From NCBI GenBank assembly GCA_001600815.1, contig BCKZ01000004.1:558001-622000 (forward strand): a stretch of 64,000 nucleotides of DNA, written 5' to 3'. The position numbers and the translations under genes were made by a program. Source of the DNA: Alloascoidea hylecoeti. Taxonomy: Eukaryota. Positions 32,768 to 33,663 of the stretch are shown piece after piece. The first letter of the stretch is position 1. Every line of letters starts with the position of its first letter. The notes under the pieces were generated by a model that had not been told where the DNA came from, searched no databases, and worked only from the letters and a program-made list of their open reading frames with translations.

Positions 32768-33106
32768 TAGGACTAAATATGTGATAATTCAATCCTCCCA
32801 ATAAGGATTAACATGTTGTTACTTTTGTAGCAGTTTTATATTGGCAATTAGGTAAGCAAATGTAACATTCACAAACTATTTTAATTGTTGGGAAAAGTAT
32901 ATTAATTTTTATAGAACCTATACTATCGTAGAAATTTAAATGATACGAATGAAATTTATGAGTCGAAACTATTTATTTTTGATTTATCTTAATTGTCAAT
33001 TGTAATAGTCTCTTATTATAAAAGGAGACAATTCTGCAAACGGTTCATAACAAATACACAGATAAATATTCTTCTCGTAGATATCCTAATCTCATAAAAC
33101 ATATAC

Positions 33107-33663
33107 ATGCTTTTGGCTGAGGCTTTAAGGCTAAAGTCTGATATTGATGAGAAACTTAATGATTTCAAATATCGTATTAAAGAAGTATGCAAAATTCAAG
33201 AAGGTGATGAACCCCAATTTGATATAAATGAATTCAAACATATGAAACTGCTTGCATCAGCTTAACAAATTCAAGAACCCTTATTGAGATTGAAAAGAAT
33301 TCCTTGGCTATATCTATAACAAATGCTCATGATCAAGATGAAAATGAGATAATAAAGCTATCTATGACTGAAGCTTTGGCCACAAAGGAAATCTTGAAGC
33401 AACGAAGATCAATGTATAGAGCTGTGGCTGATTCTGCTACCATTAGCGGTGATAAATATTTAAAAACCGAAATTAAACTTGTTAGTGTAATTTCTCCCAA
33501 AAGGATGCAGGAAAAAGGAGATAAATTATCACAGGCATTAAGGGTCTTAGATACTAAGATACAAGAACAAAATTGGTTAGCTTCATTGAAGGATTTTAAT
33601 GGTGTCGATTATGTCAGTTCAGAAACTTCAGATATAGTTGAGAAGCTATTGATACTTTATTAA
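33107..33663 (+). pseudogene. Bacterial-type DIP1984-like (DUF6847) protein, frameshifted near 33235
   Basis: The ATG 33107 frame reads MLLAEALRLKSDIDEKLNDFKYRIKEVCKIQEGDEPQFD and stops at 33263. The -1 frame continues ISLTN...MTEALATKEILKQRRSMYRAVADSA...KYLKTEIKLVSVI...QEKGDKLSQALRVLDTKIQEQNW, matching my recollection of the family pattern along its length. Confidence 0.75.

Follow-up and report, generated by a model that had tools for sequence, protein, structure and literature searches.

The question raised by this locus is how a gene of a family known mostly from prokaryotes came to stand in a yeast chromosome, and whether it still works there. The window, i.e., the whole stretch of 64,000 nucleotides that was analysed, is a budding-yeast chromosome segment of 29.5% GC. 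It carries genes for Sec15, Ybp2-like, CUE, Gre2-like and HD-domain proteins, sugar and MFS transporters, a RIB2-like protein and a fungal-specific transcription factor. An earlier note, made from the sequence alone, had described a DIP1984-like/DUF6847 reading frame in two parts, standing near RIB2 in a yeast chromosome, split by a frameshift and acquired from bacteria. A RIB2-like gene was indeed found in the window. The features to which the text refers are as follows.

32940-33006, + strand: upstream element repeated elsewhere in the genome, immediately before TATAAAA and approximately 100-165 nt before the ATG
33017-33023, + strand: TATAAAA, 84 nt before the ATG
33107-33235, + strand: N-terminal pseudogene piece (frame A, codons 1-43), found by tblastn of P0002 residues 1-43 with 72% identity
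33117-33137, + strand: 21 nt absent from the X4 strain only and present in X1 and X2, corresponding to seven codons of the most conserved N-terminal motif of the family
33232-33663, + strand: C-terminal pseudogene piece (frame B), 63% identical to P0002 over 99% of the piece
33233-33236, + strand: frame change, net -1, where homology switches from frame A to frame B, as seen by tblastn, in alignment A1 and in three Logan contig sets
after 33235 to the stop at 33263-33265, + strand: out-of-register tail of frame A
33246-33250, + strand: in-frame gap of nine codons relative to P0002, P0004, P0162 and other relatives (alignment A1), in the middle of predicted helix 2
33364, + strand: internal ATG in frame B, start of the 99-aa ORF P0001, which is the call of gene finders
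33659-33771, + strand: 3' flank conserved with the P0152/P0004-type paralogue, 12 differences and five gaps over 113 nt (records 5, 10, 16)
38055-39239: RIB2-like gene (pseudouridine synthase and deaminase)

The translations of both frames were scanned with Pfam and NCBIfam profiles, a check which the earlier note had proposed, and the profiles were matched. Frame A, running on the + strand from the ATG at 33107 to the stop at 33263-33265 and encoding 52 aa, matched Pfam PF20935 (DUF6847) over profile positions 1-34 of 141 (E 1.1e-5). Its 25.8 bits fall, for this frame alone, just below the Pfam cut-off of 27 bits. The match of frame A to NCBIfam NF038048 (DIP1984 family) covered positions 2-42 of 149 (E 9e-10, 38.9 bits). 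Frame B is open on the + strand for 143 codons from stop to stop, with its stop codon at 33661-33663, and overlaps frame A. It exceeded the cut-off for both families, reaching 79.1 bits with PF20935 (positions 41-141 of 141, E 4.2e-22) and 72.3 bits with NF038048 (positions 50-149 of 149, E 4.6e-20, cut-off 70). The sub-cut-off scores of frame A are expected, because the piece holds 43 codons only. Taken together, the two frames cover the DUF6847 profile co-linearly (1-34 and 41-141), the uncovered positions being those at the break, and the locus is thus confirmed as a member of the DUF6847/DIP1984 family in two parts. Besides DUF6847, the Pfam scan of both pieces gave three weak unrelated matches and no cytolysin domain. 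An intron reading of the two pieces was considered and rejected, since homology in frames A and B overlaps by 4 nt.

The break itself was located by tblastn of intact relatives, which joins frames A and B at 33232-33235. A short deletion near 33230-33245 had been supposed from the sequence, and the net -1 frame change agrees with it. The gap of nine codons begins five codons past the frame change, and all relatives keep those codons. Both lesions map to helix 2 (residues 40-62) of the AlphaFold model of P0002, an intact relative of 188 aa, either paralogue or orthologue. The Logan contigs X1 and X2, coming from two isolate studies of the same organism, showed no differences from the window over 32900-33800, and X1 or X2 may be the window's own source. 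The third set, X4, is independent and originates from a wood-decay metagenome; its contig spans 32900-33800 with the same frame change, three substitutions and the additional 21-nt deletion. A further set, X5 (organism B, share 0.12), contained one 202-nt contig of depth 2 over 33657-33800 and was not used. Since the break is reproduced in X1/X2 and in the independent X4, the locus is considered a real pseudogene, as the earlier note had supposed; a break common to two strains, with additional damage in one of them, is the pattern to be expected of a pseudogene. The decay seems to be recent, because 19 of the 20 columns invariant in alignment A2 are retained in the window copy, according to our own reading of alignment A1. 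Branch lengths in the IQ-TREE phylogeny (see below) were 0.11 for the window copy versus 0.23 for P0002. The short branch, together with a frame B open for 143 codons in a genome of 29.5% GC, indicates that either the loss of function was recent or the C-terminal ORF may still be in use.

Judging from the Logan contigs of runs X1, X2 and X4, from which copy number was read, the species appears to hold at least three copies, i.e., the window copy, a P0152/P0004 type and a P0161+P0014/P0162 type. The P0152/P0004-type copy is intact, with 187 aa. The other copy is split on one NCBI contig into P0161 (51 aa) and P0014 (115 aa), while in the metagenome strain it exists as P0162, an intact form of 181 aa. 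Intact paralogues elsewhere in the genome, predicted in the earlier note, thus do occur. Contigs of X1, X2 and X4 (records 5, 10, 15 and 16) match only pieces of the locus, namely 32955-32982, 33114-33144, 33364-33421 and 33659-33771; the pieces 33114-33144 and 33364-33421 are matched in records 5, 10 and 15. Loose contig ends encode, by our own reading, peptides of P0161/P0162 and P0004. Two X4 contigs, with lengths of 2160 and 22653, are exactly as long as the Logan contigs that carry the P0004 and P0162 calls. A scan of a genome-contig collection gave only six loci. A metagenome scan with the window-clade alignment gave one distant match of 33% identity, and no paralogue DNA was recovered in that scan. 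Two of the three copies assigned to the species are interrupted within approximately 10 codons of each other, the window copy at codon 43 or thereabouts and P0161 after codon 51, and the closeness of the two sites is perhaps not accidental. Since the remaining copies of the species are either intact or interrupted in a single strain, the family thus undergoes turnover through duplication and loss.

The sequences flanking the pseudogene are partly shared with these copies. The TATAAAA reported at 33017 in the earlier note is present, and the motif occurs 75 times in the window versus 78.5 times expected by chance. Because of this chance-level frequency, TATAAAA alone is no evidence of a promoter. 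In X1, X2 and X4 alike, four additional contigs match parts of the element at 32940-33006 with one or two differences each (records 2-5, 7-10 and 12-15), and a second copy is absent within the window. At least one, and probably two, of the contigs with such a match carry another DUF6847 copy. The element may be a shared promoter or regulatory element of the gene family. On the 3' side, the flank at 33659-33771 is approximately 85-90% identical to that of the P0152/P0004-type paralogue, while the proteins are only about 46-50% identical; conserved flanks around a diverged coding sequence are unusual. The 3' flank folds no better than its shuffles (z +1.06), with no stable fold. Scans for sigma-70 promoters and terminators gave results at or below chance, and such signals are irrelevant to yeast.

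Several observations were made on the remainder of the window. The stretch of about 4.5 kb 5' of the pseudogene (28600-33100) contains neither a family match in the tested frames nor any open frame reaching 110 codons, and it is unusually long for a gene-poor stretch in yeast. The sugar transporter gene on the other side of it (26950-28591, - strand) is without approximately the first 35 positions of its Pfam profile, and immediately upstream a different frame is open for 108 codons; either an intron or a second damaged gene may account for this. In the RIB2-like gene, the pseudouridine synthase domain starts at residue 53 of the stop-to-stop frame 37872-39239, which is 5' of the first ATG at 38055. 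Just upstream of it, at 37253-37822, there is an open frame of 189 codons in another frame with no family match. The region 37253-39239 may thus contain an alternative start, an intron or a frame change. The database relatives of Sec15 (10267-12900, - strand) show only 25-27% identity, apart from a 535-aa call of the gene itself, and the yeast seems to belong to an isolated or fast-evolving lineage. No tRNA gene was found within the window. The 16 ORFs contain 25 CTG codons, two of which were checked against PDB homologues. In two alignments, a conserved Leu stands opposite CTG-119 of the Gre2-like ORF, a weak hint of what may be standard CUG decoding; the other site is aligned with Lys.

Two explanations of the broken frame other than a pseudogene were weighed. 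The frame change could be false, or bacterial contamination could have been joined to yeast DNA in the assembly, and for such an artefact speak the short Logan contigs over the locus (about 2.4-2.5 kb), which end before RIB2, as well as the possible identity of X1 or X2 with the source of the window. However, three assemblies from three studies, including the independent metagenome, agree at the break. Furthermore, the GC content and the flanks are yeast-like, and relatives are placed on yeast contigs of 0.5-4 Mb, e.g., in Scheffersomyces, Diutina and Suhomyces; an artefact is hardly credible. The locus could also be functional still, if ribosomes shifted frame at 33233-33236, or if the 99-aa ORF from the ATG at 33364, comprising helices 3-4 and the tail, were expressed. 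The length of frame B in very AT-rich DNA is in line with this, and so are the conserved flanks of the paralogues and the second copy being split as well, after 51 codons. On the other hand, no slippery heptamer of the type X XXY YYZ was seen at the site in our own reading, nine codons of helix 2 are missing, the metagenome strain is without seven codons of the most conserved motif, and the 4-nt overlap of the frames leaves no room for an intron. We regard a functional locus as very unlikely. In the pseudogene reading, which we prefer, the ancestral gene would have encoded a protein of approximately 190 residues with four long helices and a C-terminal tail peculiar to the copies of this yeast. 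Two lesions in helix 2, the short deletion (-1 at 33233-33236) and the loss of nine codons after 33246, would have inactivated the copy, and in a wild strain the N-terminal motif would then have been shortened by another seven codons, in keeping with an absence of selection.

The relatives of the locus were collected in order to place it. Exhaustive search with P0002 resulted in 785 representatives at E<=1e-3, and only three at E<=1e-30, which were P0002 itself, P0004 and the window's own ORF P0001. In the profile search, 4015 proteins were found at E<=1e-5 among 8000 candidates scored, and by far the greatest part of the family is prokaryotic. The named bacterial rows include Alkanindiges, a Myxococcota MAG and Acetobacter. 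Tblastn against plasmids gave 365 records, annotated as "DIP1984 family protein" or "septicolysin", and 340 of them were from Acinetobacter. The search of the ESM Atlas gave only bacterial DUF6847 clusters and one viral cluster at 0.90. There was no constant partner gene in two bacterial plasmid neighbourhoods, and neither PADLOC nor PHROGs had a family for the yeast-type proteins P0002, P0152 and P0162; the sole row at E<=0.01 among the four proteins scanned was a chance-level match (12.5 bits) of P0279 from Acetobacter. Named eukaryotic rows were limited to 10 budding-yeast species, i.e., Suhomyces tanzawaensis, Meyerozyma guilliermondii, Meyerozyma sp. JA9, Yamadazyma tenuis, Scheffersomyces stipitis, [Candida] jaroonii, Debaryomyces tyrocola, Diutina catenulata, Saccharomycopsis crataegensis and [Candida] anglica, and to one Naganishia record, which is a near-identical Meyerozyma sequence. 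This distribution is patchy in comparison to the thousands of prokaryotic matches, and the eukaryotic range of the family may be wider than the named rows.

The fragments P0001, P0014 and P0161, the Sec15 matches and proteins outside 125-235 aa were excluded from the phylogenetic trees. In the FastTree phylogeny of 270 rows, the 10 then-named yeast rows, representing nine species, were placed together with five window-clade rows in one clade of 43 rows with support 68; [Candida] anglica was named only afterwards. This yeast-clade set was defined post hoc from the FastTree result, and most of its rows carry no species name. The IQ-TREE phylogeny comprised 87 rows: 29 of the 43 yeast-clade rows, 14 near-duplicates having been dropped, and, from the other 227, a selection of 58 made up of the 30 rows with the shortest paths, the sister row, the loci, named rows and 18 random rows. 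The 29 yeast-clade rows, including nine named species and the window clade, formed one side of a branch supported at 100/94; Meyerozyma sp. JA9, the tenth species, was also in this tree. The window copy (winB) grouped with P0002 at 100/98, and the window clade of four rows was supported at 100/99. As the tree has no root and the yeast clade simply lies on one side of a branch, nesting within bacteria and the direction of transfer are not to be read from it. Names of Debaryomycetaceae occurred in both sub-clades of the yeast clade. On the basis of these trees, the yeast copies seem to form a single old lineage that includes paralogues, rather than a fresh insertion.

A conserved element of approximately 175-215 nt (about 190 nt) was found directly 3' of prokaryotic DIP1984 genes. 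Of its 27 predicted pairs, 20 show compensatory changes on both sides. The element was located as follows.

L001, 3457-3648: RNA-like element 3' of a DIP1984 gene
L002, 3456-3670: the same element
L003, 480-705: the same element
L004, 3457-3647: the same element
L005, 487-666: the same element
L006, 3463-3636: the same element
L008, 1568-1778: the same element
L009, 4471-4680: the same element

The hosts are archaeal MAGs, a Clostridia MAG, a Bacteroidales MAG, a cyanobacterial plasmid and an Acinetobacter plasmid. The covariance model R1, built from six loci, matched eight of the nine prokaryotic loci, including two on which it was not trained (the Acinetobacter plasmid and the Bacteroidales MAG), and missed L007. 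No Rfam family reached its gathering score with the element. When R1 was run on positions 32000-35000 of the window with filters off, there was no match (best 2.6 bits, E 0.43). As the yeast locus is without the element, the yeast proteins presumably act without it.

The proposal of horizontal transfer was only partially retained. In its recent, lineage-specific form, a bacterial DIP1984 gene would have been inserted beside RIB2, taken on host composition and then broken. The family as a whole is indeed prokaryotic and often plasmid-borne, and the nearest non-yeast row by path length in FastTree is an Acetobacter protein cluster; acetic acid bacteria and yeasts share habitats. An acquisition at this locus, however, disagrees with the observations. 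The closest relatives of the window copy are of yeast type, with protein identities of 46-63%, while the best prokaryote-type rows reach approximately 41-43% to P0002. The window copy is contained within the clade of the named yeasts (100/94), and several copies of the family occur in the same species. The composition is not anomalous, the pseudogene being host-like with a GC of 0.31-0.33 versus 0.29 in the 16 ORFs and a GC3 of 0.23-0.27 versus 0.17, and the partner element of the prokaryotic genes is absent at the yeast locus. The broad fungal orthologues, which the earlier note had set against its own claim, were largely found, as named members from 10 budding-yeast species. A recent transfer is thus highly improbable, and any transfer is old and not specific to the window chromosome. 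We lean, with some reserve, towards a single entry of the family into budding yeasts, long ago, by transfer from a prokaryote. The single yeast clade of an otherwise prokaryotic, often plasmid-borne family would afterwards have been inherited, duplicated and lost. Altogether, the locus is very probably a pseudogene that arose by decay of one member of a small multi-copy DUF6847/DIP1984 family in a very AT-rich budding yeast, the family itself having probably been acquired once of old.

The protein structure was approached through P0002. The profile of yeast relatives matched 3kdq_A with E 4.5e-32. The AlphaFold model of P0002 (pLDDT 75.5) has helices at residues 4-27, 40-62, 95-119, 139-169 and 180-187, four of them long. 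In the Foldseek search with this model, the chains of 3kdq were the only significant matches (E 4e-5, probability 1.0, TM-scores 0.38-0.49, rmsd about 17 A), and there was nothing further at E<=0.001. 3KDQ, a Corynebacterium diphtheriae protein of unknown function, is the only solved relative, and P0002 may share its fold. The yeast proteins are longer than prokaryotic DIP1984 proteins (approximately 156-219 aa versus about 150) and have additional residues inserted between helices 2 and 3. The window-clade proteins, in addition, carry a C-terminal tail in comparison with other DIP1984 members, and the window copy is broken, unlike functional members with an intact frame.

Relatives in Meyerozyma and Saccharomycopsis carry the UniRef label "Septicolysin", and under this name the family has already been annotated in yeasts. 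Candida albicans orf19.716, in the passages concerned with this gene, is described as septicolysin-like and as not conserved in S. cerevisiae, and its deletion mutant as delayed in agar invasion (PMC6851284). The same gene is listed as up-regulated 4.2-fold in spaceflight culture in the corresponding part of PMC3851762. This budding-yeast gene shares the database label of the named yeast relatives, and is likened to them by label alone; it is single and intact, in contrast to the decayed window copy, which belongs to a multi-copy family. In Malassezia, a septicolysin-like gene is a published candidate for horizontal transfer, given in the relevant sections of the reports as having five copies in M. 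globosa, as absent from related species and as varying in copy number between strains (bioRxiv 10.1101/2020.01.28.923367, PMC7426719, PMC12239588). As far as these sections go, the Malassezia genes show a birth-and-death pattern like that of the window family, in a comparison made by label alone; Malassezia is a basidiomycete, whereas the window yeast is a budding yeast. In the text searches of the literature, a proposal of transfer was found for Malassezia only and none into budding yeasts.

In the Acinetobacter plasmid literature, "septicolysin" refers, in the portion of the source that uses the term, to thiol-activated (cholesterol-dependent) cytolysins (PMC5559437). These have only the name in common with the present family, carried over through annotation. 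Thiol-activated cytolysins are beta-rich, secreted proteins of approximately 500 residues. The DUF6847 proteins, unlike them, are helical, have approximately 150-190 residues (150-219 aa among the relatives) and show no evident signal peptide, and the current labels in Pfam and NCBI are "unknown function" and "DIP1984 family". The label "septicolysin" or "cytolysin" in the Acinetobacter plasmid, Malassezia and Candida papers was thus unsupported by the profile searches made here. If anything, the family protein might be a cytosolic, helical, stress- or interaction-related protein rather than a pore-forming toxin.

A wider history can be suggested for the family, although we consider it rather doubtful. 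The yeast DUF6847 genes would originate from a prokaryotic protein-plus-RNA module, from which an early budding yeast took up only the protein gene. In the wood-associated, very AT-rich yeast studied here it would have become a rapidly diversifying multi-copy family with paralogues only approximately 46-63% identical as proteins, in which, by contrast, the element at 32940-33006 (at least five loci) and the flank at 33659-33771 are conserved while copies are lost strain by strain, repeatedly in helix 2. If this were true, a conflict- or niche-related role, e.g., in interaction with bacteria or hosts, would be indicated rather than a housekeeping one. The single locus matters little, because the family to which this pseudogene belongs has been annotated before in Candida albicans and other yeasts. 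What it adds is that a family known almost exclusively from bacteria and archaea and from their plasmids has one well supported clade in budding yeasts, where the protein is apparently able to exist without the RNA-like element, and this constrains ideas on how the prokaryotic module works.
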